A stretch of DNA of 40,103 bases from assembly GCA_003990765.1 (NCBI GenBank), contig RBNJ01000127.1, forward strand, positions 1 to 40,103, read 5' to 3'. The stretch comes from Jimgerdemannia flammicorona (Eukaryota). The translations under genes and the position numbers were made by a program. Position 1 is the stretch's first letter; the number at the start of each line of letters is the position of its first letter. The notes beneath the pieces were generated by a model. That model was not told where the DNA came from. It did no database searches and saw nothing but the letters and a program-made list of their open reading frames with translations. Positions 7,817 through 40,103 of the stretch are shown here, one piece after another.

Positions 7817-7866
7817 TGAGCGTAAAGCTCCAAATGACCTGAATCATTTATGATCATGTGCCTGGA

Positions 7867-17495: not shown

Positions 17496-17933
17496 ATGCT
17501 CAAGAGATATATGCAAAATACTCAGAACTGCTTCTGTAAACCTAGTATATACTAGGAGAAGGAAGATGAAAGCAATAGTGGAGAGGGTTCATTTATTCCT
17601 AAATATATTCAATTTAATAAGGTAAAATAATTACAGTCTTATTTGGTTCTTTATTATATTGGCTATTAGTAATACTTATATATTTTTATAGAGTTTACCA
17701 GTACTCACTAATGGCCATCCACCATCTTATGGTATTCTAAAGAAGTTAGAGAGGTTTAAGGCTGCTATTTCAAATAGCTTGCCCAATTACTCATTAACAA
17801 AGCTTTCTATGGAATATTGTATTCATTATATATAGTTTGACCTATATACTATCAACAATGCCCCATTATGCTATAGTAAAATAGAAACTCTGTTTGAGTA
17901 TAATGAAATATATTCAGATATTTATTTTTATAT
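17496..17933 (+). pseudogene. Degraded two-exon hypothetical gene
   Basis: ATG at 17496, GTAAAA donor ~17622, TATAG acceptor ~17691, mostly open frame with TAG stops; no family recognised. Confidence 0.3.
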
Positions 17934-17967
17934 AATGAATTGATCAAATGGTTAAGTATATAAATTT

Positions 17968-19760
17968 TCAACTTGGTACTTTTATTGGACTATAGAATAT
18001 TTGCCTGGTCATTCTCATCTTTTCCAATTTAGTCTGACCAGTATTAGTCTATATTGCAGACTGATACTGAATAGTACCATCATCAATGATATTCTAGAAT
18101 AGAGAGTTAAGATTAATAACCATGACTATTAACAGAATGATACATGCAAATAACAAAAATGCCTATATCAACCTGAATAGTTCTCAGTACTTGGTAGCAT
18201 CCTAGTATAGTACTCCATAATGTTGCCTCTTATGGAAACTCAAATTCCCCAATTATTATTATGTGATAAATTCCATCAAAATGAAGATCCATTATATATG
18301 CTCTTCCTAAAAAAACCTGGTAATAAATATTGTCAGTATCAATAATATCAATATATTGTTAATGAGATTTTCAAAGACCACTTACCAACTATATGTATAC
18401 CACAAATGATAAGATTTGGTACACCATCCTCAATTGACTTATCTATGGCATTTTTCATTACCTTGCCAAGACTAACTAGATCCTATTTAACTAATTTATT
18501 TTTTGCATTGGGTGGTTTTATCTCACCAACTAGCAGCTCAATATGTTTTTTATCATATACCATCCTAATGATGAAATCTGGCTTTGTGCCCCAGAGGGCT
18601 GGATCAAATCTCTTTTTTATCATTGATGATGATTTGGATGTACTATTTGCCCTTTTGAATCAATAGAATAGTGTTTATATTGTATTGGTACTACTATATC
18701 ATAGAGTATATTCTATATCTACCATTCAAATATAGTTCTCTTGTTTTTAAAGAATGGACTCAATACCGGTATGACAATAGAGTGAATATGAGTGTCTTCA
18801 ATATTATGGTTTTATATAAATGATGGCCACTCATTATTGACCCTTATATATTATGAGCAGTATGAGGAGTAAATATGTTAATTAAGTGAATATCATTACA
18901 TATAACTTAGCATACATACAGATTTTGAATAATCTCCATCATCACTTCACTATTGTTTGTAGTTTTTAAGCCTTGAAAGTAGTTGTGTATAGCAGCCTTT
19001 CATTTGGGATAATTTGGATTCTTACATACAATCTAAAAAATCATTATTAAATTAGACCAGAGTATATATGTTAAAAATAGAACTTTTTATACCCCCACCT
19101 TGATGGTATTGGCGAATATCTGAATGATATCATCTGAGATAGATATATATGGGTATAGTTTTCAAAATTCAATGAACAATGTACCCCAGAGCTCATCATC
19201 AAAATATCTATCCAGATCATATGGATTCTCTTTCTGAAAAATGAATACATAGCTTAAAGCTCTGTAAAAGAAATCAGGTGGCTGTATTATTCAATATTCA
19301 TTATAATTTTATATAGCAAAACAAATAAATGCAGATAACATATAGTTCTTTGAGAGCTGTCAGATGAGTCTGCATAGTCTCACACTTCTTGATGATTGCT
19401 ATTCAATATTTATAGCATTTACTAGAGATGTCATTTTTTCATATCATCCACTGGTTTTGAAAGATAGATGACAATATAAATATATATACTGGTCTGTTAT
19501 AACATATGGTGCAAAATATAACATCATTTACCCAAGAGAGACAATCATCCAGATTCTATTCAATAATGCCAGGACTGATGAAATAGTCTATACAACTATC
19601 ATTGCTTGCCTTAGAGATAGTTGCATCACTGTGAGGTGAAGAGGAGACATAGGATGAATTGGTAACTGTTGCTGCCCCTGGGCTGCTGTTTGGAATCATA
19701 TAGTCAACTCTCGATGAGTTATTTCTTAGCACCATAACACTTGAAGAATGTACCTATATA
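17968..19760 (-). pseudogene. Multi-exon PD-(D/E)XK restriction-endonuclease-fold protein (CR-REase/Crinkler C-terminal type)
   Basis: Exons give IEDTHIHSIVIPVLSPF, ANSTSKSS..GTKPDFII..IELLVGEIKPP..DLVSLGKVMKNAID..ICGIHIVG, AYIMDLHFDGIYHI..GEFEFP; PD and ExK catalytic motifs visible at ~18580-18520. Confidence 0.75.
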
Positions 19761-20469
19761 GATATATGCAGTTATTAATACTAGACCCTTTGCATAAATT
19801 AGAATGGTAATAATCTTACATCATTTCATTTAGAAATGATATCTAGCAGATAGCCAGATGTATCATCTTTCTGAGAGTAAATATCTGATATTTTAGAGTA
19901 TATAAAAGGAAATGTATAAAGCTATATCTGTTAAATAGGCTATTTGACTGAAAGGTATCAATAATAACTATGAATAGGCATGTCTTTTATTTTTCACTCA
20001 GTCATCATTCATATCATCCCATTTTTGCTTATGCCTTAGCATAGTTTCACATACCACTATCATACTAACAATCAACAATTGTTTACACAAATCCACCTCT
20101 TTACATATCAAATGTAGTGAATAGATCTTGCTATAGGAAATGAGCAAAGCTCTTCTACCTGTAGCCTCGGTACCCCTTGAACATTTTGATGGTGATAATG
20201 TAGCTGATATCATATAATCTATTTTGAACTAATATAATACATTTATATATATTCATAATACTTGTGGGTGAATTACAGATTTTCAAATATATATACTGGG
20301 AGTTAATGTTGTATCACATAATGCTTACTTCAATATATTTGATCTAATGGGTGGTATATTGAGGTCTGAACACCAAAAAAATATCTGTTAGATAATAGAT
20401 ATTGAAGGAAATGAATGTTATAGCAAATAATATACATTGAAATGGTGGTGGTGTGATATCTGGTGGGTT

Positions 20470-20828
20470 CATTTGCTGGTACGAGGGCATTCAATAATGA
20501 CATGGATGTGTCCATTATCAAGGAGTTCAGGAAAATACTTCTGGACCTTGTGGGCTACTGGCAGATTAACTCTCTTTAACACCATATCAATAGCAGCCAT
20601 TGGATCAGCTTCAAGTGTGGTCTACAGATCATTGGGGTTATCAAGTAGAATATCAACCATCTATAGTTTAAGATTTTTTGCTGTAATATAATCAAGTTCT
20701 GATGAACATTTTTCCTTGATGAGGTCCTTCAGTGTACTGAAACTTTTAGTCTTCCTAATCTCCACAGGAAAGTTTTGGCGTAATGGGCTGGGATCACTGT
20801 GGATAAGGTAGTTGAGAGTGATGGACAT
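20470..20828 (-). pseudogene. Crinkler (CRN) N-terminal ubiquitin-like header domain; possibly the 5' end of the REase gene downstream
   Basis: MSITLNYLIHSDPSP..NFPVEIRKTKSFSTLKDLIKEK..ITAKNLKL*MVDI..QKYFPE..GHIHVIIECP: CRN pattern with LxLWxV (W>stop) and HIHVIV. Confidence 0.85.
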
Positions 20829-21846
20829 ATCAAAAGCTGTATAAATGATCTAGTGAGACAATAGTGCTGGTAGCAGTGGATCCAAGATGTGGTATTATTA
20901 CTTATAGTTAGGTAGGCTCACTATTACAAGTAAGAGTAAGAGAGGAAAACAATGTGTATTATATTTTTAATTGAACAGTGGATCTAAGACCCTGGTAAAT
21001 GATGTTACACATTAGCTACCAAATTTTGCCTGTTTAGATACTAGCACAGCATACAGTAAAGACCATCCCTTAATCTATCATATATCTTGTAATGGTTCAG
21101 AAAAACTTTTCCAAGAATCTTACCATCAGGCAATTTATCCACCAGCATATTCATCATTCATAGACTATATGTGGGAATTGTTTTATTACCATCAAATAAA
21201 TTATCTGATATCTGATGCCATAATCTTGATCTAATCATAATTTTTACAGAATATATGCTGTATCTGGAATGAGGCATATTTGTATAAGATCTTTAATATA
21301 TATACTGGCCAATAAGGAATCCCCATATTCAACTGCATTCCTAGTACACATTCTTTACTATGATTATATGCAAAGGTGTTACAGCCCGAATTTTAGTGCC
21401 AATATTTTGTACGACCATTCTCAAAAAATGGTAGTACAGAATATTGATGCTTGAATCTGAGCAGAGCTCATACTATTTAAAAAACACCAACATGGCTAGT
21501 ACTCTCTGTATAATTCCTGAGAAAGTAATTTATTATATAGACCCATATTCAAATAAAAGTGTAGTCATAGTATGCTTTATACTCCAATCTACAATCTGGC
21601 TACCCAGAGACAGAATGACATCATTTATATATCCATAGATATTTGCAAATCTCAAATCTCATAATTCCACCCCTTAATGAAATTCTATAATATATAACAT
21701 GCTATCAAACTATATATATAACTTTGCTGGTATTGCTTTTTTGCAATAAACAATCCACTACATCAAGGATCCTACTAGACCACTAGTTATATACAACTTG
21801 GCTCTAGTATAGCAAACAATTTTCACATGTTATTACAGCTGGATCT

Positions 21847-23930
21847 CTACTCATCCATGACAACAGAGACCATTGACATGATCATGCTCTGCAGTAGCTG
21901 GCTCGCTGATACATATTTGGCCCTGATGCTGATAGTATATGTTTTACCAACTATGTTGCGAAATATATCATCATATACACTGAGTGTTTCAGTCTATAAA
22001 AGAGAAGGAGAATAAATTAACTTAAAAAAACTTGACAAACAATAAAATGATGAATATATATCAATATACTGCAAGATTGGCCAATTCATTGACACTCATC
22101 TTGAACAAAGATTTGCCAACCAACTCAAATGCCGTTGTATTCATCTGGTTGTCAGCTTCACCTATTATGATTTTAAGAAAGTATCTGAAAACAAACCTGT
22201 ATGTCAATATACACAAAAAAGAGGGGTGGCTGATTTATAGTCAATTTCAATTTTTTATACTTTGTATACATATATCTCACCAATATCATACCTATGTTCA
22301 AGACACTCTCTGCTGTCTTTAATTTTCTTTTTGCACATGCCACAAGATATATATGATATTTCACTATCATTGATACTGATCATGATAGCTTCCGACTTGA
22401 AGCAGATATCTTCATTTTTGTTGCTACAGGTCTTTTCAACTACATTCACCAATGTCATCAATGGGTACTCAACTGAATATACAAGGCTCTTGGGTATACC
22501 ATTTATCTTTACAGAGTCTTTGTGCTACCTGTGTAGCTCTTCACATTCCAGAAAGGCAGGATCCAGAAGTATATATGGATAGCTTGGCAACTATAGAGAT
22601 ATAACTGCATGTAGTGAATTAATAAATATCTCCATATCCAAAAGTCAATTCAAAATTGGAGTACTTGACTACACTTACATCCTTTATATTCCTGGATGGA
22701 TACCCCATAGAGCAAGGCTACATTTTCGACTGAGCCCTTGAATAACTCCACAGTGCTGCCCCATAAAGTGACCACAATCTTTCCATCAGTATTGGCGATG
22801 GTGAACTTCTGTTACACCCACTTATTCCCATTCTTTGTACCATATATAGCATTTTCATCACATTGAATGATAACCCCAATGACATCTGGAGAAACAAAAA
22901 GGATGTCAATCATCTCTGAATTTGCTAAAAAAAATCCCAACACTTCATATTATCATACTCACTTAGATCCTTCTGACCAGTATATAGGTCAGATAATAGT
23001 GTAAGATCAAGCAACAGTTCTGCTGACTTCTCCTCAGATTTTTCAATAACTGTGTCTGAGTTGATGGTGTATTCCTGTGGTTTGCCTGGGATTGTGGTGA
23101 TTTTGAGACCATTGATGCTATAGTGCTGTCCAGCTACAATATGTCTAAGCTTCGATACATTATCACCAAAGACCTTGATTGAAATTGGACAGCTCTGCAG
23201 AATAATGAAATATGTGAATACAAGTACCTGTGAAATACAGTCACTCTGTTGAGTGTCATCATTATCTCCACCTTTTTAACAGAGCACCAAGCTTCAGCAT
23301 ATTCCTTCTCCTTGTTAGCCCACTTTAACTTTGTCAGTTTTATTAACAATATAAAGGCAGTATTGAAGGCAGCAACCCTGGGTGTCACTGCAACTGAGGA
23401 GTGGCCAGCAATAAACATCTTGTTAGGGCATTGATCAGAAGTAATCTGCTCAGTACAGGTATGCTTACAGATGATCTCTTTAAACTCTACTGGATTCCTG
23501 ATCATTTTTGGAGGGGTGGATGTGATTCTATATGTCTGTATGTCCATATGTCTGGGGCAGTATATTGAAACAAATAAAATCTCCTCTTTATAATGAAATC
23601 TGCATCCAAGTCTATAATACTCAATCAGTAGAATGACCATCCTACTTAAATTTTATGACAGAGATGATTGAAAACATCTTCAGTGTCTGAGGGGTATTTG
23701 GAATAACAGCTGTTACCAAAATAATAGATTAGACTGACTTTACTACTGGTTACTGACAAGGGGTCCCTGTTCCCAAACATGCCTGATATCTAATGCTCTC
23801 TATCAGAAATATGCAGCTCATATCCATGTCCTTTAGGCATAACTTTGGTTATCTGCAGGTTGGGCTTGTAAGTAGTTATATGGTCTGGAGAACTATAGTT
23901 TGCAATAAAGTTAATTGACAGGGTCACCAT
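21847..23930 (-). pseudogene. RPA1: RPA1/RPA70-like ssDNA-binding protein, paralog 1 (intron-containing; N, A, B, C OB folds)
   Basis: N: MVTLS..KPNLQITKV..YELHISDREH; A: ISIKVFGDNVSKL..GQHYSINGLK..EYTINSDTVIE; B: DVIGVII..TKNG..FTIANTDGKIVVTLWG..GVSIQEYKG; C: ISYISCGMCKKKI, TTAFELVGKSLFKMSVNEL, GKTYTISIRAK. Confidence 0.85.
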
Positions 23931-24137
23931 TGTAGATATAGGTGTGGAGCAGTATAATAAGATAATTGCATATCTTTTATATTTAGCTCTTCATATATTG
24001 AATCAGATGCAGATAGCCATCCTGATACAGAAAGTACAGAACACATGACATTGCTGGGCCAGACAGGTTTTCTCATGTAATTGTCCATGATGCATTGATC
24101 TGTCTTGAACCCACTAAACCACAATAAGCATGCCTAC

Positions 24138-25267
24138 TATTCAATGGATTCAAATCTCCACACAGACCTCTACACTGCCTTCTGCTATATTATTTCCTTT
24201 TCAATATATTTTTATTCTTTGTCTATGGTTGCAAGTGAATTATCAACCTCTTCAAAGAATGCTTTAATCAATTAAACTATTCTCTATTGAAAGCCTGATT
24301 TTGGCTTCACTATAATGAAATGAATATCTACAAGCTTATATGGCATAATCCCTACATATCTATAACTGCCCAAACCATGCTATAGAGGATACTGTATGAT
24401 CATACTATCCCTAAGACTAATGCTGGCCAGAGATATAGTATAGGTCCTTTCCCTCTCACTTATCACAGCCAATGTAAAATCAATAGACTTAATTTCTACA
24501 GTACCAAAGTCCACCAAGAGGCTATTGTGTTGGTCCTCTGGGCCAACCTTCTTAAATACATTTAGTATTCCCCATACTCTAGGCCATGCTGCCTGTATTG
24601 CTGCACTATCACCAGAGTGAAATGATATATTGTACTCAGATATATTACTAAGATCATCCACCTTATACAGCTGAAAAACTATATTAATGAAGATATATCA
24701 CTACGCAAGCCCTTCAGTAGCAACCAGTCCACCCCATATTTGTGGCTCATACTTTCGGGGAACTGCACCATCTGGTTCACATGTTATGGGGCACTTGATC
24801 TCAAAGAGATTACATTCAGCAGAGACTCTAGTCTGTCAGCTATTTTGCATAGCTGTCATCTACAATGCATCATTGGCAGTATGCTATACCACACCAATGC
24901 CATCAGGTGAGTATCTGAACTGATCCACATCTAGAATATCCACTATGCAGATCTCATAACAGTATATCCAGTACCCCAGCTGCAGCTCAGCAAATGCAAT
25001 AGTGACTGACTCGAATGCTGTCCCAAATCCACATGCTGCACTTCTGAATGACTTGCCCTGACCAAGCAGCCTTTCCATAAAGTTCTCCATGAATTTGACA
25101 AAAGAATCATATCAGTTCAAACCCCACATAGTTCCAAGGTCTGAACTACTGATGGTGATATTTAGAAGCTTGTACCATCTTGGATCATGCTGTTTGATGG
25201 CACTATATCAGTGCTGGAACTCTTCAACTGATCTCACCAGCTCTCTTATATTTGTAATGGCTGACAT
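24138..25267 (-). pseudogene. YqaJ/lambda-exonuclease family nuclease, asfarvirus D345L-like; intronless, single frame with in-frame stops
   Basis: KQHDPRWY..TISSSDLGTMWGLN*YDS, SAACGFGTAFE, RYSPDG, LFEIKCP, VPRKYEPQIWGGL, FINIVFQLY, PRVWGI, VDFGT, VGIMPYKL; 3' end approximate. Confidence 0.85.
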
Positions 25268-25354
25268 ATTATCCAAAATAATACTAAAGGAGTTATGGAA
25301 TACCTTTATAGTGATTGAAGACGAACCTAATATTCAGGATGGTGTCTGAGTTAT

Positions 25355-26348
25355 AGTATCTACAATTGTCACTGATATAATTGTATATTCTACATCTATA
25401 ATATTACAGTATGAGCTGTGCATATGATATGATAATAGTGATCAGTGATAGATTTAAACAATATACTGTACTGATCTTCATCCAGATGCATCCAATCATC
25501 TGCTGAGACCTCTAATAATGTAACAGCAGCCTTCTCAAATACTATTACAGTAACCATTATCTATGCAAATATGTAGTACATATTGAAGAGATGGACTAGA
25601 ACACACAACATCACATTTGTTATACATCCACTATCCAACATATTCTGTGAGCTGTCTATTGCACAGGCTGTATGCATTATATGTAATATTCTCTTATTCG
25701 ATAATAGTGATATAGCCTGCGATAGTACTATAGTAGAGCTCATCCAGTGGAATCTCCATATCCAGAAGAGTTCACAGTGTTGAGATTGCCATAACTCTCT
25801 GATAATCAGTCTTGTCATAGCTCTGCATAGTCCACTATAGCTACAGAGCATTACTCTCAGTATTGTCAAGATTCTGTCCAACACAGTTGATATCAGTATA
25901 TGTCAGAGTATACTGAGCACAGAATACCTTTGGTAGTATATTACTAATCACTAGGATATCACCTGTTGCAACTGTCAGATCAATGGCCTGCTGCCCCCAG
26001 AATATAACTGAAACAATACAACCATCTCTACCAACTACCTCAAGTGAACATCAACTTGTGGTACCACCTCTAACATCTGTAGTGACCAGCTCACCACTAT
26101 CTATCACCACACAAAGGATGTCAACAGATGTCTTTCCACAAATATCATCTAATAGTATATAGGAATATACTATCTCTAGATAGTCATCAGGCCCACATGT
26201 TATTATGATTGCAGCATCTCTCATATCCAGAAATTAGTACTTTGGCACATGCTGTAGCCTGGTACCAGTGATGTAGCAACTGCACTCTGATACTAGCTCT
26301 CTAAATACTGCATTACTATTATTTCACTGATATGTATTTTTATAATAT
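25355..26348 (-). pseudogene. RPA1: RPA1-like paralog 2, 3' part (OB folds A-end, B, C), separated from its 5' part by the Ngaro insertion
   Basis: VDILCVVIDSGELVT..GGTTS*CSLEVVGRDGCIVSVIFWGQQA, NLDNTESNAL*L*W, ITYNAYSLCNRQLTE..G*WMYNKC (eroded Zn finger), QYVLHICI, VFEKAAVTLLEVSADD. Confidence 0.8.
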
Positions 26349-26648
26349 ATATAGTTATGAATGCAATTCAAACTTCAGCAAAGTGGCCGAGAGCTGCTTA
26401 ACATTATGTGGAACAATCATGCAATTTCCCCTTGGCAGACTTAGTTTAGCTCATTTCATGCAGTTTTTGTCCCTTTCTATGCCAAAGATAACTTAGCTAG
26501 TGGTGTTTTGAAAAATACGCCAACCATTAATGCAAGTTAGTAACAATGTAATCGGTCCAGCGACTGAGTATTCGTTGCATCTCAGCTAGTCAGGCATATA
26601 TTACGCCAAGTTGCAATTAGTCGCTAGTATTTACAATCAGTTCACATA
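26349..26648 (+). repeat. Ngaro repeat A1
   Basis: atatagttatgaatg.aattcaaacttcagcaaagtggccgagagc ... tttacaatcagttc duplicated at 30825-31125. Confidence 0.95.
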
Positions 26649-26659
26649 TCACATTCACA

Positions 26660-27978
26660 ATGCCCCCAATTCACACTCGGTCTCATGGTTCTTTGGAACC
26701 AGCTATAGCCCCAAGACCAGTTGCCCCCCTAGCCCCCTTACATGAACCTCACCCCTCCCCCATTCCTAATCTATCTGGCCTATGCACTTGTTGCAAAGAA
26801 CAGCTAGTCGCACTGTGTCACGAACATCATCTGCCAGTCGAAGGTCAAAAAGCTGCACTAGTTACGCATCTCAACTTGTACCATCCAAGTCCCAACCCTC
26901 CACCTCAGCTGATTATTGGAGAGCAAGCTGAAGATGCCCTTATTGAATGCTTAATCCCCACTTTAGTTGGGCGCCTTGCAACACATCCATCCATCATACC
27001 GATGGGCCCCAACTTAATTACTCTGCCAGTATCAGGGCTACCGGTGGGCTTGTCACAGGTAATTCCTCTACCGGCCACTACTCCTCTCTCAGCTATGGCC
27101 CCCTTCATGCCGCCACCTCCCATGACAAGGTTGATGTCACAATCGCTGCCAATCTGCAAAGTGGTGAGTCTTCCTTGTCTCTCATTTCAGATGCTGTGCT
27201 TCGACGGAATTGGGTACCGCCTGACTTGCTGGCATCACTAGATGCGGGCGACTATCAGATTCTATCCGAATGGACCGGCAGTGCTCTTATTTCGCGATCA
27301 AGCAGCTGCAAAAAAGCAGATATACACATGCCTGACTGCGACCTAGATCTACCACTGTGGCTCAAAGCCATCTTTAACATCCGAGGTGCTCTACTGGCTC
27401 TGGGTACCACCCGATCGACCTTGCTTGCATCCCATGCTCCTCAACTTCTTACCCATGCAATCTTTATCGTTAAAGCGATAAATGATCATTATGACTGGGT
27501 GGCACTTCAACGCTTTGACTGTCAAGTTCGTACACTCAAGGTCTCCTTCCCTGACTTGGACATCAGCAATCCAGACATGGTTTGCCATACATTCGAGACA
27601 ATTGTCGGCCAACCTTCCTCAGCACCCTTAGTATACCAATGTCACTCTACATTCTCCTATGCTGGATCTCATGCAGTGGGAAGTTCATCAACTGCCCACC
27701 CAGCTGGTGGCCCAAAACCGGTCTCATCCACCAACCTCTTGTGCTTTCGATGTGGGGTGTGGGGACATGCCATCAGCTCCTACACCCAAACCCCACTCCA
27801 GCGTCCTACTTTCCCATCCAAGCCAGACGATCCTATCTACCCAGATGGTGCAGCAAGCTCGGTCTGTCATAACTTTAACAGCTCTGGTTGCTCCTATCGA
27901 AACTGTGGTCAAGTGCACATATGCCTCTTCTGCTATAGACCTCACACAGCCCCGGCTTGCTCTGCTCGCCATGGCTAA
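26660..27978 (+). pseudogene. Ngaro ORF1 (gag-like) with SAP-like motif, CCHC knuckle and C-terminal Cys/His finger; frameshifted
   Basis: KEQLVALCHEHHLPVEGQKAALVTHL; CFRCGVWGHAISS; CHNFNSSGCSYRNCGQVHICLFCYRPHTAPAC; split between ORFs 26660..27241 and 26947..27978. Confidence 0.85.
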
Positions 27979-29713
27979 TCTCTTGATTCCCCCCACTTCT
28001 AGTCACCCAACCACCCTGTACCATATTAAGGAGTGGAAAAGGGTACTGCGTTCGCATCCAAACCAATCACTCGTTCAGTACCACCTAACAGGTCTCTACC
28101 ACGATTATCAGCACGGAAATCACTCTCACCCTGAGCTTCGCATCAACCTCATATCCGACAACCTTACCTCCACTTACCAGCACCAAGAAGTTCTCTCCAC
28201 CAACATTCTCACTGAGCTAGCTGCGGGTGGCTATCTTGGCCCATTTTCGTCTCTCTCCTCCATACTACCAGAATTCCGCCCCTTTTGCAATGCACCCCTT
28301 GGTGCCATTCCTAAAAAGCACTCGTCCAAATTTCATACTATACAACATCTATCCTTTCCCTACGGGAGTTCAGTCAATGACAGAATCAATCCTGAGGAGT
28401 TCTCAATCCAGTACCAGTCTATTCAAGCCGTCATTCTCCTTCTCCTCTCAGTCAGCTCTACTGCGCTCTTCTGGAAGGCCGATGTGGCTGATGCCTTCCG
28501 CACCATCCCAGTACACCGCTCCGATTGGGCTATGCAGGATATCTGCTGGCTTGGTCTTTTCTTCCTCGACATGTTCCTCCCCTTTGGTCTTTGCTCTGCT
28601 CCCTTTATCTTCATATCTCTCATGGACCTCTTTACCTGGATCTGTATTTAACTATACATTCTTCCTAACTTGGGCCATTTCATTGATGACTTTATTTACG
28701 TCGCACCTCCGTCCAGCACATTCTCCTCCTATAATCAATTTCATGCTACCGCATCTCGATTCGGCCTCCCACTCAAACCCTCCAAAGATATTCCTCCTAC
28801 TCCAACTATAGAGTATGTTGGCTTCATTCTCGACGCTCCGACAATGACGATTAGTCTCCCAATGGAGAAACGCACATGTATTCTCACCTTACTAGCATCA
28901 TGGCTTACACCGGCTCAGCAGACTCAATCATACCATCTATGTCCACATTCACACCATGAAGCTCAATCACTCTCGGGCCATCTTATGCACATTGTTCAAA
29001 TACTTCCAGATGGGAAGGTGTTTTGCGACAGCATCATTCACTTTGCTTCCTCTTGGAAACTGCCCTATGCGGGGCAGCGTTTTCCACCTCCTTGACTAGC
29101 CACTGACTTACAGTGGTGGTATGATATTCTACACTCATGGCCAGATCATCGCCTGCTCTGCCATTCCAAGTGGCTCGATTGTAGTCTGTTTACAGATGTA
29201 TCTGGGACACTTGGTGCCAGTGGCCTGCTGGGCCAACGCTGGTGGAGTACTCGTTGGGCTCCCTCCTTCTTAGATCTGAATGGCTATGACATATTCTGGA
29301 AAGAAATGTTTGCCATTTGGGTCTCATTGGTGCTCTGGGGCCCCTTGTTTTGTTCTCAACGTATTATTCTCTAGTGTGATAGCCAGCCCTGTGTCAAATC
29401 ATTGACCAGTGGTCGGGCATGCCATCATCCTCTTGTCAATGACTTACTTCATCGTATCATTCTCTTACATCTCGAAATCGGATTCGAAATTCAAGCTCGT
29501 TACATCCCTTCAGCATCTAACCCTGTAGACCCCTTATCTCGCCATATACTTCCTCCATATCCCCAGGACCCATTGCCTACATTAATCACATCCCTCTTTG
29601 GCTTCGCCATCAATTCGACACCTGCCTCTACCAACGCACCCACACTCGAACGGGTAACTTCTGGTCAGGCACCAATTCTCTACACTGATTTCTCAACTCC
29701 TGCAATATCGTAG
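27971..29713 (+). pseudogene. Ngaro ORF2 reverse transcriptase + RNase H (in-frame stops)
   Basis: PLGAIPKK..HLSFP.GSSVND, KADVADAFR, LPFGLCSAPFIF, HFIDDF, IEYVGF; RNase H FTDVSG, IFWKEMFA, CDSQ, YIPSASNPVDPLSR. Confidence 0.92.
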
Positions 29714-30636
29714 AGACTGCTGCTTTCTCTCTTCAAGATGAATTACTCAGTTATTGGGCTCTTTGGCTTGTCCAAGATGGCAAGCCCTACTCCACCATCA
29801 AGAACTACTTTGATGATCTCACAGCCTATCAGATCACTCACTGATATGGTCCTCCACTCCAGCACCTTTCTCTACCCCTCTTCAACATCATTATGAAGTC
29901 TATTCAGACTCACCCACCACCTTCCAGTTCACTTGACCAGCTTTCTATTATGTGCCAACACCTCTGGTCTATCTGTCTCTCTCTCCACATAGACACTCCT
30001 TTTGGTGCTACTATTTGGGCAGTGGCGTGCTCTGCTTTTTATGGCTTAATGCGTGTTGGTGAATTTACTACTCAAGATGGCTCCATATTCAATCCGAATT
30101 GGCAAATTTGTCATCACCATCTTCATTGCCAACAGGATGACACCCTTTCTTGACCATTCTGGGCTCTACATCTTCCCCGAACAAAAATAGGCAGAGCAGG
30201 CGACGTCTTCCTTGGCTTCTCTGGTGCCTTCGATTGCCCGTGCACTGCAATTGACAACATGGTCCATATTCACCCAGCACAACCTCATGACCCCACCTTC
30301 TGCCTTGGCCTGGGCCAACCACTTTCTTGATCTACATTCATTGAAACGATTCGATCTTCGCTCACAGGCACCTCTCTAGCTGTCGGTATTTATGGTCACT
30401 CCTTTCGAATTGGTGGTGCCACGCTTCTGGTAGCTGGGGGCTATCCTGATCATGTCATTCAACTTACTGGTCGATGGAAATCCACCGTATTTCTCTGCTA
30501 CATTCGACACCTTGACCACATTCTCCCCAAAACCATGGCAACACTAGTAGGACTCTCTCTACCTGATCTTCAGCAGGCCATGGGTTTGGCCGGTAATGGC
30601 CGAATTTTGCCCATAAGTGGTTTATGGCACCATTAG
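29560..30636 (+). pseudogene. Ngaro ORF3 tyrosine recombinase (in-frame stops; start approximate)
   Basis: AFYGLMRVGEFT, LHLPRTK, GHSFRIGGAT, IQLTGRWKSTVFLCYIR (R-K-HxxR-W-Y set). Confidence 0.92.
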
Positions 30637-30669
30637 GAGCCTAAAACCACTTCCCAGGCCCACAGTTTT

Positions 30670-31322
30670 GGCCCCCTTCGCTAATGCGAATGGCGGGCCT
30701 TGGAGGCATATGCTTCCATATAGCCAAACCTACCCCACTTCATCCCCTATACACATTCTACATTTTACGCTTCATAATCCCCCCTTTTCTACTTCGTTGA
30801 ATTGGTCACTCGATAGACACTTTGATATAGTTATGAATGTAATTCAAACTTCAGCAAAGTGGCCGAGAGCTGCTTAACATTATGCGGAACAATCATGCAA
30901 TTTCCCCTTGGCGGACTTAGTTTAGCTCATTTCATGCAGTTTCTTGTCCCTTTCTATGCCAAAGATAACTTAGCTAGTGGTGTTTTGAAAAATATGCCAA
31001 CCATTAATACGAGTTAGTAACAATGTAATTGGTCCAACGACTGAGTATTCATCGCATCTCAGCTAGTCAGGCGTATACTATGCCAAGTTGCAATTAGTCG
31101 CTAGTATTTACAATCAGTTCGTGTAACTCTCCCACCCATCCCCTTTTAGTAGTATATAATAAAAGAAGGCCCCCTTCACTAATGCGAATGGCGGGCCTTG
31201 GAGGCATATGCTTCCATATAGCCAAATCTACCCCGCTTCATCCCCTATACACATTCTATATTTTATGCTTCATAATTCCCCCTTTTCTACTTTGTTGAAT
31301 TGGTCACTTGATAGATACTTTG
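30670..31322 (+). repeat. Ngaro 3' repeats B1 (30670-30824), A2 (30825-31125), 42-bp spacer, B2 (31168-31322)
   Basis: ggcccccttc.ctaatgcgaatggcgggcc...gataga.actttg present twice, flanking A2. Confidence 0.95.
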
Positions 31323-32606
31323 CCTATCATTATAGAGACAGTTAGGAAAGCCATTACAGGTGTTTAGCATAATACTATCTACTGAATACTCACCCCACTC
31401 TGATCACAGACCGTTAGACTGAACTTCTCATTCATAATACTAGTTTGGCTTATAACTAGCACATGAACTGTAATACCAGATGTATGTGGTATTAACTTGC
31501 TGATAGAGGTGATTTTGGAGAATGATATTACCTTCTGGTGCTTGACCTTTGTCATTATATTATCCTAGAGACTACTTTGGAGACCTGGGAGCTTCACCCA
31601 TCACTATTTTGTTGAATTCTCGAATCACAAGGTGGCTGTTATATATATAAAATACTGATTATGCTTATATATAATACAATTACAAAGGCCAACACATATA
31701 GGATATATATGTAGATTCACACTTAGTCTTATACTCATAATCACTGATGCAAATAATTGTGAATTCCTCTATATCAATAGAATTCATAGATATTGCTATA
31801 TACAAAAATCTCATATTAGTCACCAAAATACCACTGCAGTCTTTATCTACAAGTCAGGCATACATATCCAGCATAGTTTGGTCACCATCAGAGATAATGC
31901 ATATTGTTTCAGTAAGGACTAGAACCTGGTCCCTATAGCTTGACACATCATCCACTGAAACCTATTCAACCTTAAGTACCTGTAGAATAATATTGTTGGA
32001 TAGAGTGAACTGCTCCTTTCCAATGCCTGCAACAAAACCTTTAGTGAGAGCAGGTGGGATAGAGAAGGTAGAAGAGATATTTGTGAGAGGCAGAGTCTCA
32101 GTACTGATACTAAGAGGTGCTGACTCATCTTGAACAAAGACTGACTGACTTGTTAATCCTCTTAGCTGGAGTTCAGATTACAGTGAATTCAAGAATTAAA
32201 CAGAAACTACAGTTTTTCATGAACAGTAGAATATTGTTAATTCTAGTGTCAAAAAATGTCAGAACAGTAGAAATGGCATACATACACATGGCCATCAATC
32301 ACCAAAGGTTCAAATTCATCAATACAAATAACTGAATTCAAGGCAACTCCATCTAGAATAGTATAAGTTGTTGCATGTATATAATGCATACCATCCGAGA
32401 TAACCAGACTATGGAAGTTATATGACACTTGTAAATAGACATCATGGTATATAATTTTGAACAAAAAAACTGAAAATATAATAGAAGACTCACATTGGCA
32501 GCTATATTTTTAATATCTGTACAATAGGTGTCAATACTACACTCAAATTATGATATAGAATATATACTGAAGAATTATCAAGTGGAGAATCAGAAGCAGA
32601 AACCAT
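31323..32606 (-). pseudogene. RPA1: RPA1-like paralog 2, 5' part (two tandem RPA70N-like OB domains and start of DBD-A), intron-containing
   Basis: ATG 32606: LTPIVQILKI|..HSLVISDGMHYIHA..LNSVICIDEF; second copy ALTKGFV..IILQVLKVE..CIISDGDQTML..FTIICISDY; then ITSISKLIPHTSGITVHVLV..FSLTVCDQSG|GTGAGT..CTAAC..GATAG. Confidence 0.75.
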
Positions 32607-32714
32607 AATATAAAGAAAAGACCAACCAGATTGAAAAAGAAAGAAAGAGATAGTATATATATCAAATTGTGACTGTGAGTGACTATATTAAGTACTGAAT
32701 GGATCTTAGCAATC

Positions 32715-32954
32715 GATTATATTAGTATAATTAATAGTATATAGGAGCAAACACATCTTTTGCTCAAAAACCTCCTAAGTGACTTCGAATTTTTTATCTG
32801 GCCAATGAAATCACATTTAGCATAACCCTTTTCATTGAAAGGATTACACTAAATGACAGCTCATTAGCTGGGCAAAAAATTTGAAGTCACTTAGGAGGTT
32901 TTTGAGCAAAAGATGTGTTTGCTCCTATATACTATTAACTATACTAATATAACC
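32715..32954. repeat. Long inverted repeat (~94-bp arms, ~52-bp loop); MITE or hairpin
   Basis: ttatattagtata.ttaatagtatataggagcaaacacatcttttgctcaaaaacctcctaagtgacttc.aattttt is the reverse complement of 32861-32954. Confidence 0.9.
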
Positions 32955-33149
32955 TATTCTCTTTGATCATTCTAGGAGAATTGTCAGATATATATTCTAT
33001 AATTTGTTGAACCCCAATATATATAAAGTATCTCCCAAACTATACCTGCTTTCATTTTATTTATAAAATATTACAATAGCTGATGATTTTAAAATCTCTT
33101 ACATTCTAGCTGCAACTATAGGTAAGCTTGACTGATTTTTACTAGAGCA

Positions 33150-34728
33150 AAGATATGGCAACAATCTGAGTATGGAGCAGAATAATATATTATATGCTGT
33201 AGTAGACAATGGTCAGAATATATTCTGTATAGGCTCTGCAGGTAAACTATATTTCTTGTCTGAGTTTGTTTGGGATCATATAATATATTATATACAAAGC
33301 TGATATACTCTTTATCAGGGACAGGGAAAACATGGCTACTCCTGTGAATGATTGCTCTTCTCGCAGAGAAGCATGATGAAGAGAATATTGCTATAACTGT
33401 AACAACTGGTATAGCAGCCTCCCATATCAATGGTCAAATGATCCACAGCTTTACAGAGATTAGCAATGGTGCAAAAAGTGTAGAAGAGCTTATATCCAGC
33501 ATAATGAAAAATGCTACAGTGCAAGATCAATGGAAGACTGCTGTAGTGCTTATTATTGATGAGATATCAATATTGAGTCATAAGCTATTTCAAAAGCTTG
33601 AGAAAATTGTGTGAAATATTTGTGGAAGAGATGTACCATAGAGTGGTCTCAAAATTATCATTATGGGTGATTTCTATCAACTCCCCCCTGTTGTGGTTGA
33701 ACAAGATTCCAGAGGAATATATGCTTTCCAGGCTATATTATGGGCAGCATCTATTCACCTAACATTTGTTCTCAAAGAGGTATATAGGCAAAGGGATCCT
33801 GGTATATATGTATTTCTATTGGCCATTCTAGTATTTATTGAGTCTCTTGTTAATAGCTATCTTTGTAGACTTTATCCAGATATTAAATAAATTGCATGTT
33901 GGCCAAGTGACCAAAAAAACAGAGGATATAATGAAGTCTTTGAAACATCCACTAGCCCTTCCTGACCAAAGAATCATTCTGGTATCACTATAAGTATCTC
34001 ATTTTCTTATAGTCCTTCTTTGAATCTATCTGAGATTTAGGACTCTTTACCTTAATGAAATTTGCTTTGTCTAGCTTTCCAATCCATAAGAAGGTATAAG
34101 AAATAAATTGTCATCAGCTCTAAAAGTTGATGGGCAAAGCCCATCGCTATGTTGCAATTGACAGTGGAGATATAACAATGGTTGAGAAGCTGTGTTTGTT
34201 TCCTCAGATATTAGACTTAAAGGTGGGTGCATGGGTAATCCTGCTGAAAAATATGATAGAAAACCTGGTAAATAGCAGTGCAGGAATCATCGAGAGTTTT
34301 GTCAAGGACCAGAGTGAGAGCATATCATACCCCAAAGTATGGTTTGACAATGGAATAATCCAAACAATCTGGCCAGAAGTATGGAAAAATGAAGACAGGT
34401 ATATATAAAAATTATTGTTTTTGTCATCTGTTTTGTTTACAAAACTCTGACTGATAAACTACTCTCAAACACATCAGATGGACTAATCCTGGCCAGATAT
34501 GTACAGCTGTCACTAGATCTGACATGGACATTATCAATACATAAATCACAAGGAATGACCATTGAATATATTGTAATTGATTATATACAGATATTTGCAG
34601 CTGGGCAGTTATATATAGGTATATCTTGTACAAAGTCTCCCAATGGATTGCAGGTACTGAACTTCAGTCATACAAAATGTATTGTAGATACTACTGTCAC
34701 AGCCTTCTATAAAAGATTGAACAGCTGA
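33150..34728 (+). pseudogene. PIF1: PIF1/RRM3-family 5'-3' DNA helicase (intron-containing, core only)
   Basis: LSMEQ..QNIFCIGSAG|TGKT, ITVTTGIAASHINGQMIHSF, LIIDEISIL, GDFYQLPPV, LKEVYRQRD, LKVGAWVILLKN..LVNSSAGII, IHKSQGMT, FAAGQLYIGIS, GLQVLNF..VTAFY. Confidence 0.93.
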
Positions 34729-34734
34729 TTTGAT

Positions 34735-36235
34735 TTATTTATCAGCTTTAAAGTATATCTCATAAATTCTTGCACTTATTCCTACTATAACCTTTGGTCC
34801 CATTGCATTGTGTATCATTATCTGTTGTTTGTCATCACCATTTAAAATGCTATATACTGCAAACAGATTGCTGGATATATGGTAATATGTAGCTATCTCC
34901 TGTGTCTTGGTAAATGAAACCCCCTGCACAGTTGTGAGCATTGCTATAAAGATATGCTGGAGATGGCAGCATTGGACTTGTTGTTCAGTGTACAGTATGC
35001 CTGATAGATAATAAAGTATGGTGTTGTGAGATATTTCTGGAGTGCAAGATATGTAGCTCAGTTGATATATTCATCTGAGATGTCATTCAGTTGCTGGATC
35101 TCTATCTTCTTCAGCTCATTGTGCATGGTAAGATAGATAATGGTGTAATCAGTGCTGGATATATACTTGACAAAGAAGCCATCTCTGATATATGTGGTGG
35201 AGATTGCCGATATTATTGCCTGTGGATTGAATGCATTGACCACTACAGAATCGTATTCCTCAATAATATACACAACCTGGTCTGCACCAGAGCACCTTAG
35301 TCATACCTTCTGCTCTACAAAGCATCCATCCTTCATGCTGGTCACCAGATCATCCATGTGCTTCCATTCAATGATCCAGTTTAGCACCAGCTCCATCTTG
35401 TCACTATGCCGACATGTGACCCATACAATGTCTCCAAGCTCCAGTGCATGTACCTCTACCTCAATATGATGTTTCTGCAATTGTGCACAGATGTAGTCAT
35501 GGTTGGCGATGGACCTAATCTCACAGGAATCGAGAATGAGCACCACATCAAAGGTACCAGGGTAGAATATAGTGGGTGTGATAGATGGAAATGATGGTTT
35601 GTCTTCCTCTCCTACTTTTGTCCTTTCTGCTACTTGGAGTGGTCTGGACAGGTGATGTGCCAGTAGTGCTCCAGCATCTGTCAGAAAATACTTAGCTGGA
35701 TTGCTATCCTTATTAATCAATCTCTTTATCACCAAGGTATTTAGTTCTGACAATGTAGCTCTATCGCAATATGGCTGTGCAAGAGGTTTGAGGTCCTTCC
35801 TGGCAATGTGGACATCAGCAGCATGCAGGGCCATGAGAATGACATATGGACTACTACGTAGCCTGGGGGTGTAGGAATGGGGTATGCTACCAGTGGTAGG
35901 TGAATTGGAGTTGTATTTATTGTGTTCTGATAGCTATTTAATTAGCTTGCTGACTATCTGTAGACCAATACCCTTTAGATGGCATGCATCTTGTGGTGAT
36001 GTGAAGGGAATCAGATAGTGTAGAATGGCATTGTAGGCCTGTAGAGTTTGAAGAATATCAGCTCTAAAGATTATATTAAAAATAATAACATCTTTGCAGC
36101 ATGGGTAATGACCTTTTGATATGAATAATATACCTTAGATCCAGTGGCCTGTACTTTATACATGTGCTCTGCAAGACATGCCAGATAGAGTGGGTTTGCA
36201 CAGGATGCATGTTTTGATTTTGATATTGATGGCAT
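34735..36235 (-). pseudogene. MUS81: MUS81 structure-specific endonuclease (HhH, winged helix, ERCC4, HhH2)
   Basis: SCANPLYL..YQK|AY..HLKGIG; YTPRLRSSPYVILMAL; VVLILDSCEIRS, LELGDIVWV, IIEWKHMDDLVTSMKDGCFVEQK (canonical ERK..DDL..SIKDGRF.EQK), VYIIEE, MLTTVQGVS. Confidence 0.92.
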
Positions 36236-36915
36236 GCTGATTATTGTACAAGAGTCTGGCCACTACAACTATTTAAATACTGTAAGTATCCTCACTATAT
36301 CTGTACCCAATATGTATCCATATTTCTGCCACCCCTTAGAGTCTATTACCTGTCCCCCTTGCAATCAACTGCACACTCTAAAGAGTGGCTATACAAGTGG
36401 CAATGTTCAGAGCTACCCTATACTTTACATAATACTAAAGACAAAATATACATTTAATAGCTCTGAATCCATTATAATCAACCCATATACACAAGCCCAT
36501 ATTACAATTAAAACTACTGTCAGCATTCCAGACAATCACTATGAATGTATTATATCACTCCTGGGTTACCACCACACATTGAGATGAGAACTACAACTAT
36601 CTGCTTGGGATATACAGGTGTACTGGGCTTGGAAATATATAATAACCATACTACTCTATATATCATTGACATAGGGGTTGTTCTCTGTGAGCTTGTCACT
36701 AAGCGTATATATAGTAAGGTTATATTTCCCTTTTCTCATCTTTCTTTAATTACATGATATATCTATCTCACTCACTAATATAGTCTATAAGACAGAGGCC
36801 CATCAAGTCACAAAGGCAACTACACAGAATGCCACCTATCTTAAAGCTCTGCTAGAAGCAGTATATATCCCATCTACTATATTTATTTGATCACCAATAA
36901 AATCAAAAGGTACTA

Positions 36916-37347
36916 CTATTTATTTACATATGGCATCTCACTACGAATGTAGTAGGCAAGAATTATATCCTTTGTTACAAGTGTAATACATTTGGCATGG
37001 ATTGTAGCCAGGTAAGAATCTTCAAAAAGCTCAATAATATATGTCTCCACTGTCTCCTACAATATACCAAAAGCAGAGGTCTGGATACAGAGCCCCATCT
37101 TGATGTCTTCTAGTACCTTGTAAACCAAGCATATAAAGGGAGCCTTTTTTATGAGCAGTTCTGTAGATCTTTGGTATTTTTGGATCTCTCGAAAGGCAAC
37201 TATCCCAGAATGATAACAATGGGGTCTCTTGATTCTGCCTCTTACAAGGATTATTTCACATGGAGCTAGGATCATTTTGTGTAGAGCTGGGACCATTTTG
37301 TATGGTATCTTATTATGCTTCTGAGGGTTGGGTTGCTTTTGACACAT
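36916..37347 (-). pseudogene. H3: Divergent intronless histone H3
   Basis: KRPHCYHSGIVAFREIQKYQRSTELLIKKAPFICLV..IQTSAFGIL*ETVETYIIELFEDSYLATIHAKCITLVTKDIILAYYIRSE covers the whole H3 fold; N-tail non-canonical. Confidence 0.92.
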
Positions 37348-38016
37348 TTGTAATCATTTTTGGAGTGTGATATAATGTGTGGGATAGATAGATACTTCTT
37401 GACAGTTTAAATAGCATTTGGCTGGCTAGTATCATGCTGTGTTCTCTATTCATATGATAGTATACAGGTGATCTCCATTTCTAAGTATTTATTAATTCAC
37501 AGCTAGTATCATATAGAGGAGTGCATAGTTGTGATTTTTATAACAGCAGCCATCAAACTGGATACAATATATATCTTTTATCAGAATATGTATGGTCAGG
37601 TATGAAATAATATATTACTTTATATGTCTTTGTATTTTCTGTACATTGATTCTTACCAGCTATTGTTTATATGTTATTAATGTGCCATGGTCTGTAGGAT
37701 CCATTTCTCCAGCAACTACTGTAATGCATTCTACCAGAGAGGTTGTAGTATATGTACAATCAACCTAGTCCTTGGAGGGAACAAGTGGCATATTTTCAGC
37801 AAACTATGTAGATACTTTCAAATGCTGGTTCAATATATGTGTGCAACACAGTCCAGTTATTTTCCACAGGTGTCTGGATATGCAGAATATATCTATAAGT
37901 TTGTTTTCCATATCCAGATTTGAAAATATAATGAAATATATACTATTTACTGTCATTTCAAATTAGTTGGCCATATCTTTCACACTGTGGATATTTCAAT
38001 TTCTTCACTCTGGACA

Positions 38017-39345
38017 TTTTTTTTTTTATAGTCACTTAGACTCTGCCATTTATTACCAGTCTATTAATAAGTTTACAGTATATCCTCCCACTACCTGATC
38101 CCCATAGAGGGGCTACTCCCCACACCTTTATGAACAAAGACCACTCTCTCACCTGCAACTCCAATCCTCCCCCCACTCTGCTCACAGATTTTCTCCACTA
38201 ACTAATGCCTTTGACCACTCTGCAACTCCCAACCAAGCCACCAGCCTGTCAAGATGTCTTCCATAAGGCTACACTACCACAACAGCCAGATCTCTAAGCC
38301 TAGTCTCCTCCCATCCTCAAAAACAAATAACCAGTGACTTGTCAGCTCCACCCAAATGACCAAAGCCCAGCCTAATGTAAGTCATTCCTTCCCCACCCCC
38401 CCCCACCAATCTATCCCTCAAATTCTTCTACTGCCCCCGCATGCCAACTCCCCTACACTCTATCTCCAAATGATCTCCAACAGTCTGCCAAAAGGCACTA
38501 AGTACCTTACACTCTCCTAGCCAATGTTCAGGTGTCTACACATATCCCCCTTCTTGCTCTACATTATAATACTCTTTACAGTCAAAGCAACCCCCCTCAA
38601 TAAGGTGACCTGAGTGGAAGTTGAGCATGACATTCTGCCTCAGCATGCACCACCAGGCCACCCAGTACTTTGGCGGTATCCATCTCCTCACCTCAGCACT
38701 CCAGGCCCAAATGCTATGCCAGTCCCACTCCTCACTAATTCCAACTCCTTGCCAACTGCTAGGCCACAGATCCTGGCCTGGTCCCCATTGGCATTCTATC
38801 CCATCACTAATATCAAACTCAATTAAGGAAATGCCTCCCAGCAACACTCAGTCCCATCTCCACATTACCGGGTCCCAAGCCACCTCCCCTTCATTTCCCT
38901 GCCACCAAATTCCAATGCAGTGCACCCCCTCTGCCACCCTCCACCAGAAGCCTTTGTATTACAATTGTTCAGTATTCTGAAGGCCAACAAATGCTAGGAG
39001 ATCGCCAGTCAAACCTCTCAGTGAGGACCTCATCTCCCAGATTTTCTGCAATAGGGGGACCCAATCTCTCCCTCTCAACTCCACTACTCTCTTCAGCCAC
39101 CATGCTCTCAAGCAGTGCAGCCTCTTAGAAAAGTCAACCAGCCTAAGTCCACCACTTGCCACCAGTAAGGACAAGATCTCTCAGCTGATCTAACTCCATA
39201 TTCCAGCCCAGATCCACCCCTTGGCCAGCTTCATCAATCACTTCACCACCCAAGCTGGGAAGTCCAAATGATAAGTCATATACCACAACTTCAGCAGCCA
39301 ATAGATGTTCAGAATCAAAACATGCCCTGCTAGAGACAATTGGTG
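38017..39345 (-). mobile_element. 5'-truncated L1/Tx1-like LINE (post-RT region, CCHC finger, 3' UTR, poly(A))
   Basis: QLSLAGHVLILN..KLWY..WIWAG..GGLRLVDF..CLRAWWL; CFDC..TPEHWLGEC..FW; AATAAA then poly(A) (poly-T at 38017-38028 on +). Confidence 0.8.
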
Positions 39346-39452
39346 CAGGGGGGGGCCCCCCTAGGGGAATTGGATAGGGGTTGGGATCATTGTAATTATA
39401 TAGACTAGTTCGGTAATAAAGGGCAGTCCAAGAGACTATAAAAAAAAAAAAA
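39346..39452 (+). mobile_element. Short 3' stub of a related LINE ending in poly(A)
   Basis: ggtaataaagggcagtccaagagactataaaaaaaaaaaaa resembles the minus-strand LINE end ggtaataaatggcagagtctaagtgactataaaaaaaaaaaa. Confidence 0.55.
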
Positions 39453-40103
39453 GATATTCTTAAGTCTCATCCTATTGAACTACAAATATTATCTCATATC
39501 AATTTCATTATCCTTAGTTAATTTGGCAGATAACAAATATGAAATTGAATTTAAGCATACTCTAGTCAATCTGATATTTGAAACTAATATAATATTTAAT
39601 ATCTCTTTCCTCCTTTCTTCTCTTTATAAGATTATCAATATTGACTCAATTAATGGAATAATCTGTATAATGTTTGGATTTAGAGATTATATTCTGAAGA
39701 TTTACCAAATGACTAATTGTTGTAATAGTATCTATATATAATTTAATAATAGGAAAAAGGCTTGTGCTCTGGATATTATAAAATAGCTCTGTTCTCTCTA
39801 TAATAGAAATCAATATTCTATAGGAGTTAGTTTGAAAACAATATATTTGGATTGTATATCTATTGATTTCATTATTTAAGAATACTAATATATGGATTTT
39901 TAATTCAAAAACAGAAATATTAATATGATATCAATGCAAAGATTAATATTTGAGTACTTAAGCTGACCTCATTTACATTATAAAATATAGTATATTCAGC
40001 TATAAAGTTAGTAATAAGTAATTACAGTATATATATATATTCAAATATTTTTCTTTCTTTTTAGTCATAAAAAAATAATAATAGACCTATTTTTTCCAAA
40101 AAA

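Follow-up and report, generated by a model that had tools for sequence, protein, structure and literature searches.

A decayed cluster of recombination, replication and chromatin genes in Jimgerdemannia flammicorona, possibly a fragment of a silenced giant virus-like or mobile element

Contig RBNJ01000127.1 of the fungus Jimgerdemannia flammicorona (GenBank assembly GCA_003990765.1) carries, at 21.85-37.35 kb, a cluster of two RPA1-like genes (RPA#1 and RPA#2), a YqaJ exonuclease, a 240-bp palindrome, a PIF1-family helicase, a MUS81-type endonuclease and a histone H3, in which six genes out of six are pseudogenes (Table 1). The window is the whole stretch of 40,103 nt that was analysed, positions 1 to 40,103 of the forward strand, and all coordinates refer to it. 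Profile, homology and repeat searches find every part that a first-pass annotation of this DNA had listed, including a Ngaro-type retrotransposon, each close to where that annotation had placed it. With the retrotransposon set aside the six genes occupy 10.5 kb, and all of them encode proteins that act on DNA or on chromatin. They stand nearly gene-to-gene, as had been proposed: the YqaJ gene follows RPA#2 on the same strand, with ~100 bp between the stop codon of the one and the start of the other, and the stop codons of PIF1 and MUS81 are ~220 bp apart. Pfam scans covered, in six frames, open reading frames (ORFs) of at least 45 amino acids (aa) throughout the decayed block that holds the cluster, with stop codons read through (as X) for selected stretches and strands only.

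Table 1. Position, strand and supporting evidence of the features in and around the cluster (P0001 and P0002 are the closest relatives of RPA#2 and of the exonuclease, respectively)
Feature	Position	Strand	Evidence and remarks
CpG-depleted, AT-enriched block	15900-40103	.	Contains all cluster parts and the Ulp1 and Crinkler remnants; sharp left edge, right edge past the window
RPA1-like pseudogene #1	21850-22949	-	REPA_OB_2 E=6.1e-8 at 22650-22949 (stop read-through); Rep_fac-A_C E=3.7e-4 at 22064-22234
YqaJ-type exonuclease pseudogene	24230-25240	-	phmmer E=9.4e-55 to P0002, 39% identity
RPA1-like pseudogene #2, last exon (OB, zinc ribbon, C-terminal domain)	25337-26329	-	P0001 residues 105-442, 63.6% identity
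Ngaro-type (DIRS-like) tyrosine-recombinase retrotransposon	26349-31322	+	4.97 kb; RVT_1 E=6.9e-5, Phage_integrase E=2.6e-3
RPA1-like pseudogene #2, exons 1 and 2	31394-31787	-	tblastn with P0001 and sequence inspection; ATG at 31787
Long palindrome (hairpin)	32717-32955	.	121-nt arms, 87% complementary
PIF1-family helicase pseudogene, helicase core only	33163-34728	+	Pfam PIF1 E=2e-12, Pif1_2B E=8.8e-6
MUS81-type endonuclease pseudogene	~34952-36269	-	ERCC4 E=6e-12 and 1.5e-4, HHH_8 E=7.8e-4, MUS81-like_WH E=3.9e-4
Histone H3 pseudogene	36919-37347	-	E=2.5e-29 to H3 chains; 143 codons, one in-frame stop at 37057-37059

The YqaJ gene occupies a single frame of 337 codons with 10 in-frame stops, eight of them inside the domain alignment, and no frameshift. 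Its relatives were collected together with those of RPA#2, using as phmmer query a 650-residue read-through translation of positions 24299-26248 (minus strand) that includes both genes; compared with 1.84 billion representative proteins, it gave 485 matches at E<=0.001. Residues 144-463 of P0002 align at 25237-24239 by tblastn, and many other proteins match the YqaJ half at ~30% identity. The window sequence stays below the Pfam threshold for the family (E=0.08, 13.7 bits versus a 22-bit cut-off), yet it covers profile positions 2-147 of 150, has the SPDG and EIKCP motifs at the near-invariant columns of the family, and matches the family over its full length. The Pfam YqaJ domain is present in P0002 and in 102 of the 107 relatives that were scanned, out of 147, and a transposase domain in none of the 107. 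Comparison with solved structures gives no PDB match at E<=1. One relative, P0012, is a 490-aa fusion of dUTPase and YqaJ. Feature matches of P0002 in the Atlas lead to YqaJ clusters in 28 cases out of 30, the top three being 94-100% viral and most often assigned to Nucleocytoviricota, and the structural rows concur (TM 0.61 over 322 residues). The Atlas neighbours of this closest relative agree with the first-pass view of the nuclease as viral: judged by its sequence relatives, the window's YqaJ looks viral, probably of giant-virus type, which we take as a lead and not as proof. Since RPA#2 and YqaJ lie in the same frame, an RPA-YqaJ fusion protein was also considered; it was rejected, as none of the 150 listed matches spans both halves and P0001 stops where RPA#2 does.

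The best relative of RPA#2 is P0001 (65% identity, E=2.4e-112 by phmmer), the 442-aa hypothetical protein BC938DRAFT_477116 of J. flammicorona itself, which is encoded on a 1997-bp contig in an intact, far less decayed form. RPA#2 is therefore repeated, with at least one further copy in Jimgerdemannia; copies elsewhere, for which the first-pass annotation had suggested a search, are found in this way for RPA#2 only. The structural match of P0001 spans residues 58-439 only, indicating an RPA1 without its N-terminal domain, 442 aa long versus ~600 aa for cellular RPA1. The tblastn alignment of P0001 breaks up into three minus-strand segments (31787-31566, 31579-31394 and 26329-25337) placed around the Ngaro retrotransposon, which therefore interrupts RPA#2. 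The first intron lies at ~31710-31636, its donor now reading AT, and a 1-nt frameshift is found near 31570. The second exon ends ahead of a GTGAGT donor at 31393, so that Ngaro sits inside the second intron, which would measure ~90 nt without the insert. The insertion that had been proposed is thus present, at 4.97 kb, and its position is corrected from between genes to inside an RPA#2 intron. In the last exon, read-through of 25.4-26.25 kb gives matches to Rep_fac-A_C (E=2.5e-4) and REPA_OB_2 (E=6.7e-4), and out-and-back frameshifts are found close to the 3' end; the whole alignment to P0001 contains 14 stops and at least three frameshifts. Among solved structures RPA#2 matches yeast Rfa1 only, with E=0.029. 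Further exons may exist upstream at 31869-32407, where the N-terminal part of P0030, another J. flammicorona match (538 aa, 36% identity), aligns (32407-31869). RPA#1 has its OB domain, zinc-ribbon region and C-terminal domain each in a different frame, with 2, 3 and 7 stops per segment, and its N-terminal end may reach ~23650. No extra Pfam domains are found on the minus strand at 22950-24300 and 31323-32710.

In the retrotransposon itself the split direct repeats A1 (26349-26643), B1 (30670-30824), A2 (30825-31120) and B2 (31168-31322) are 94-97% identical, in-frame stops are few, and it has a GC content of 48% and a CpG observed/expected ratio of 0.52, which make it younger than the block around it. 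It arrived after most of the decay and is itself beginning to lose CpG.

The PIF1 gene is split in five segments across three frames, with a 77-nt intron (GTAAAC..CAG) within the Walker A motif, and aligns by tblastn to residues 151-588 of a 590-aa PIF1 of Ambispora, without a recognisable N-terminal extension. A PIF1-family helicase adjoining two RPA1-like genes brings to mind Helitrons, which carry RPA-like genes and capture host genes with their introns. The cluster would then be a decayed Helitron or Helitron-like element, with PIF1 derived from the Rep/helicase, the RPA-like genes as its usual companions, and MUS81, H3 and YqaJ as captured genes. This is very unlikely in our opinion. Scanning of 31323-33320, upstream of PIF1, in the three plus frames with stop read-through finds neither Helitron_like_N nor any other Pfam domain; the palindrome, together with RPA#2 exons of the opposite strand, fills that space, and PIF1 begins at the helicase core. 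PF14214, the Helitron Rep domain, is found by precomputed domains in none of the best 120 of 3630 PIF1 relatives, selected with a filter of 293-933 aa that would hide long Rep/helicase proteins.

MUS81 maintains one frame over 439 codons, with five in-frame stops and no frameshift, and matches human MUS81 in the PDB with E=3.7e-9. A word-index search for its relatives gave 676 candidates, none at E<=0.001, and is a weak test because a decayed sequence shares few exact words. The H3 gene has a recognisable N-terminal tail with small insertions. The palindrome sits between the divergent RPA#2 and PIF1 genes and its predicted DNA fold reaches -93.7 kcal/mol (z=-21.5), which none of 200 shuffled sequences equals. 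Of its arms, compared at 32785 and 32886, one has TTCGAA, with a CpG, and the other TTTGAA; at least one CpG to TpG change must therefore have occurred after the palindrome formed. It may represent a small transposon of the foldback type or, equally, a hairpin with a function of its own.

The mixture of one nuclease apparently of giant-virus type with host-type, intron-bearing genes is supported by these assignments. The description of the latter as intron-containing host genes in the first-pass annotation fits at least RPA#2 and PIF1, which look cellular and have short GT-AG introns, and fits in part MUS81 and H3, which look cellular too. Since all six genes are broken, they are not working orthologues of the host's genes, and the possibility that they are the host's only orthologues, with which the first-pass interpretation would fall, is excluded in this sense.

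The cluster lies within a block of uniformly altered composition. From 1 to 15.9 kb the window has a GC content of ~46% and a CpG observed/expected ratio of 0.97; from ~15.9 kb onwards GC is 31-43% and the ratio 0.05-0.16, the Ngaro stretch excepted. The number of CpG falls from 808 in 1-15500 to 27 in 16001-26348, and it is 23 in 31323-40103. No CpG cluster lies beyond the one at 15892 and the switch takes place within a few hundred bases, a sharp edge at ~15900 that may mark where an insertion ends or where methylation changes. The assertion that the genes are all eroded in the same way is confirmed by the CpG ratio, which is within 0.05-0.16 in every sub-region versus 0.97 in 1-16 kb.

Comparison of RPA#2 with P0001 reveals the nature of the damage. 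The two are identical at 302 of 437 aligned residues; for 72 of the 135 mismatches one T>C or A>G substitution in the window restores the P0001 residue, and for 8 the reverse substitution does so; 23 call for a different single change, 5 for several transitions, and 27 are unexplained, partly because of misaligned frameshifted sequence. The 72 inferred mutated C are now followed on the 3' side by A (35 sites), G (21), C (11) or T (5). As reconstructed from this alignment, the damage runs in one direction, C>T/G>A, and concentrates on CpG and CpA. Deaminated methylcytosine would fit this pattern, as would a process resembling repeat-induced point mutation (RIP), and the combination of CpG loss and C>T bias is consistent with past cytosine methylation of the block. 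Neurospora-type RIP was tried on the usual indices and rejected (TpA/ApT 0.74-0.98, (CpA+TpG)/(ApC+GpT) 1.29-1.67), although the 35 and 21 sites now followed by A and G leave room for a RIP-like process. The many stops and few frameshifts suggest hypermutation rather than slow neutral decay. In MUS81 (1.3 kb) and YqaJ (1 kb) the frame is kept despite 5 and 10 stops, respectively, their decay being almost purely by base substitution.

We favour, tentatively and with slightly less than even confidence, the hypothesis that the 10.5 kb come from a single large element of foreign or selfish nature, endogenous giant-virus-like or giant mobile, which was silenced by methylation, survives here as a fragment and carried genes for recombination-dependent replication. 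They would be the best-preserved part of a larger foreign or selfish block, at least 19 kb long without Ngaro, in an Endogonales-type fungus. The host would have silenced this block, presumably by cytosine methylation; C>T/G>A hypermutation would then have destroyed it, and Ngaro would have invaded it later. Before its death the element would have had a YqaJ 5'-3' exonuclease of giant-virus type behind an RPA1-like gene; another RPA1-like gene, a PIF1 reduced to the helicase core, MUS81 and H3 would have completed the set. YqaJ could have resected DNA ends, the RPA-like proteins could have coated or annealed the single strands, PIF1 could have extended or migrated the D-loop, MUS81 could have cut the junctions, and H3 could have served in chromatin. 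We infer the common origin, the methylation, the mobility or viral nature and every one of these steps, the latter from what the protein families do elsewhere. A single silenced foreign or selfish piece agrees better than a random pile with genes that are functionally coherent and closely packed, with the absence of the usual repeat genes, and with a decay that is uniform in depth and begins at a sharp edge. The interpretation of the first-pass annotation, which saw here the private replication and recombination toolkit of a large selfish element, is on the whole partly supported.

A random pile of pseudogenes and repeats is nevertheless the competitor that deserves most discussion. The genes would have come separately, some carried in by transposons, others duplicated at the retro or DNA level or left over from viruses, and would have been eroded alike by shared silencing. 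PIF1-like helicases and RPA-like proteins are known in Helitrons, and transposons are known to carry Ulp1 along; RPA#1 and RPA#2 are no close paralogues of each other, Ngaro has inserted in the block, selfish-type Crinkler and Ulp1 remnants lie nearby, and no element ends are found. Such an assembly has to be reconciled with ~19 kb in which, the young Ngaro aside, no reverse transcriptase, integrase, transposase or Rep is detected, with six genes of one functional class at short distances, and with a depth of decay so equal that one arrival time fits it better than many. MUS81 and H3, besides, are not known as transposon genes. YqaJ, in support of the pile, is described as the second ORF of ISL2EU transposons (PMC4482050). 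We hold separate arrivals to be rather unlikely.

Alternatively, a segment with neighbouring ordinary host genes could have been duplicated, then silenced and left to decay as a repeat. The cellular likeness of RPA#2, PIF1, MUS81 and H3, two of them with introns, and the intact RPA1-like copy in Jimgerdemannia would be expected from such an event. To our knowledge, however, RPA1, PIF1, MUS81 and H3-type genes are normally unlinked loci in fungi, YqaJ belongs to a viral-like family, RPA#2 and P0001 are without the N-terminal domain of cellular RPA1, and PIF1 has no recognisable N-terminal extension, all of which makes this duplication scarcely probable.

The hypothesis of one foreign element has itself to accommodate a number of observations that weigh against it. 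Four of the five gene kinds are host-like and one is viral-like. The nearest Atlas clusters of P0001 are 100% eukaryotic cellular RPA1; PIF1 has its best relatives, at 41% identity, among the cellular PIF1 proteins of fungi (Lasiodiplodia, Brettanomyces, Tremellales, Ambispora); MUS81 has the eukaryotic order of HhH, winged helix and ERCC4; the histone fold of H3 is near canonical; and RPA#2 and PIF1 have spliceosomal introns. The viral label of YqaJ comes from a stand-in only 39% identical, in clusters with taxon records for a minority of their members. RPA#1 and RPA#2 give no cross-match by tblastn. Within the cluster RPA#2 alone is shown to be repeated, and a second instance of the linkage is so far not known. 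The markers for which the first-pass annotation had suggested a search do not appear among the Pfam matches in the 24 kb of decayed DNA, neither the giant-virus genes (capsid, PolB, A32, RNA polymerase and, beyond those it named, VLTF3), in a block that ends outside the window, nor transposase, Helitron Rep or a DUF3435-type recombinase. Neither a terminal repeat nor a target duplication of the block is found, with one edge only within the window.

A more specific version of the foreign-element hypothesis would see here an undescribed giant virus-like or mobile element of Endogonales with a private kit for break-induced, recombination-dependent replication, in which a giant-virus YqaJ paired with truncated RPA1-like single-strand-binding proteins would be joined by MUS81, a PIF1 reduced to its core and an H3 that belongs to the element. 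It would have no conventional polymerase-centred module in this part and would be arranged around the palindrome as an origin or resolution site. We regard this version as decidedly unlikely.

If the cluster derives from one element, it would document that Endogonales, an early lineage of land-plant symbionts, have harboured a large element of virus-like or mobile nature. It would also document a gene set in which recombination drives replication and a nuclease of giant-virus origin stands beside host-type genes with introns. It would then bear on how giant viruses or giant transposons gain host replication and chromatin genes and on how fungi outside Dikarya disarm invading DNA. If it is only an accumulation of unrelated pseudogenes, it still shows in a clean form, and for a genome of Mucoromycota, how C>T decay can be directional and sharply bounded.

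The remainder of the window has few recognisable genes. At the edge of the decayed block, at ~16090-16375 (minus strand), there is a weak match (E=1.1e-3) to a remnant of Ulp1/SUMO-protease (Peptidase_C48). A Crinkler N-terminal domain pseudogene (E=9.4e-13) lies at ~20489-20819 (minus strand) and continues leftwards; downstream of it, in the same frame, the motif GEIKP resembles by eye that of PD-(D/E)XK nucleases. Read-through scans of 16.0-21.85 kb find nothing besides these two remnants, 37354-40103 has no Pfam domains in six frames, and Pfam finds no reverse transcriptase or integrase in the decayed block besides those of Ngaro. At 38000-39000 the strand is strongly C-rich (GC skew -0.49) and the plus frames are proline/serine-rich and of low complexity, with no family match. 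In the CpG-normal part, ornithine cyclodeaminase/mu-crystallin fragments at 4401-4772 and 6791-7180, both on the minus strand and ~2.4 kb apart, suggest a tandem pair; the other ORFs of at least 55 aa in 1-15.9 kb have no Pfam match.

Several known systems share features with the cluster. The Ngaro/DIRS class is represented by the insertion at 26349-31322, which has its reverse transcriptase, tyrosine recombinase and A1..B1-A2-B2 repeat arrangement; here it is an invader of the block, outside the gene cluster proper. Its recombinase is the sole tyrosine recombinase signal, and no DUF3435 'captain' of the Starship type is found in a window that shows one block edge. With Helitrons the cluster shares a PIF1-family helicase beside RPA1-like genes and retained introns; it differs in having no Rep domain and a core-only helicase whose best matches are cellular PIF1. 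The literature search yielded no paper that joins YqaJ, RPA and a helicase in a transposon. ISL2EU transposons, of the PHIS superfamily, have in common with it a YqaJ gene, the second ORF of these elements, in a eukaryotic genome and a repeat-like setting (PMC4482050). They differ by their transposase: no DDE, THAP or HTH transposase is found around 21.8-26.6 kb and no inverted repeats flank YqaJ, whose relatives carry a transposase-type domain in 0 of 107 cases and whose Atlas neighbours are giant-virus clusters.

A further parallel is offered by viruses that pair an exonuclease with a single-strand-binding or annealing protein, such as lambda Exo/Beta, herpesvirus UL12/ICP8 and baculovirus AN/LEF-3. 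The position of YqaJ ~100 bp from a same-strand gene for a single-strand-binding protein recalls, by analogy, these two-part recombinases; the partner differs here, being a eukaryotic RPA1-like OB-fold protein and no known annealase.

A close likeness is also seen to giant endogenous viral elements, large, gene-dense pieces of foreign DNA silenced by the host, such as the phaeovirus-type elements of brown algae, among whose genes YqaJ, Pif1 and Ulp1 are drawn (PMC11890097). The cluster differs from them by the lack of a hallmark gene in the 24 kb fragment and by the cellular likeness of four of its five gene kinds. Full-layout MUS81, an RPA1-like protein and a near-canonical H3 are not among their genes as described in the accessible parts of these sources. 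Gene by gene, YqaJ leads through P0002 to giant-virus clusters, the RPA-like gene to eukaryotic clusters only, and PIF1 has its best named matches in cellular fungi. To say that this combination is found in no described element goes partly too far. Endogenous giant-virus elements of a brown alga are drawn with Pif1 helicase, YqaJ recombinase, Ulp1 protease and dUTPase (PMC11890097), so that Pif1, YqaJ and Ulp1 together are not new; what stands is that the literature search found, in main texts accessible in part, no element with MUS81, RPA1-like and H3 beside YqaJ and PIF1. No report of such elements in Endogonales was found by the same search. The giant viruses that infect zoosporic fungi have YqaJ among their core genes (PMC13533422). 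A 1.5-Mb viral region of Rhizophagus irregularis has 37 ORFs for replication, recombination and repair and intron-like sequences in 22 genes; it is without capsid and several marker genes and was later invaded by repeats (PMC10640383). Methylation of viral insertions is reportedly the topic of two further studies (PMC11244446, PMC12344493). Silenced large foreign DNA with replication and recombination genes is a kind already known.

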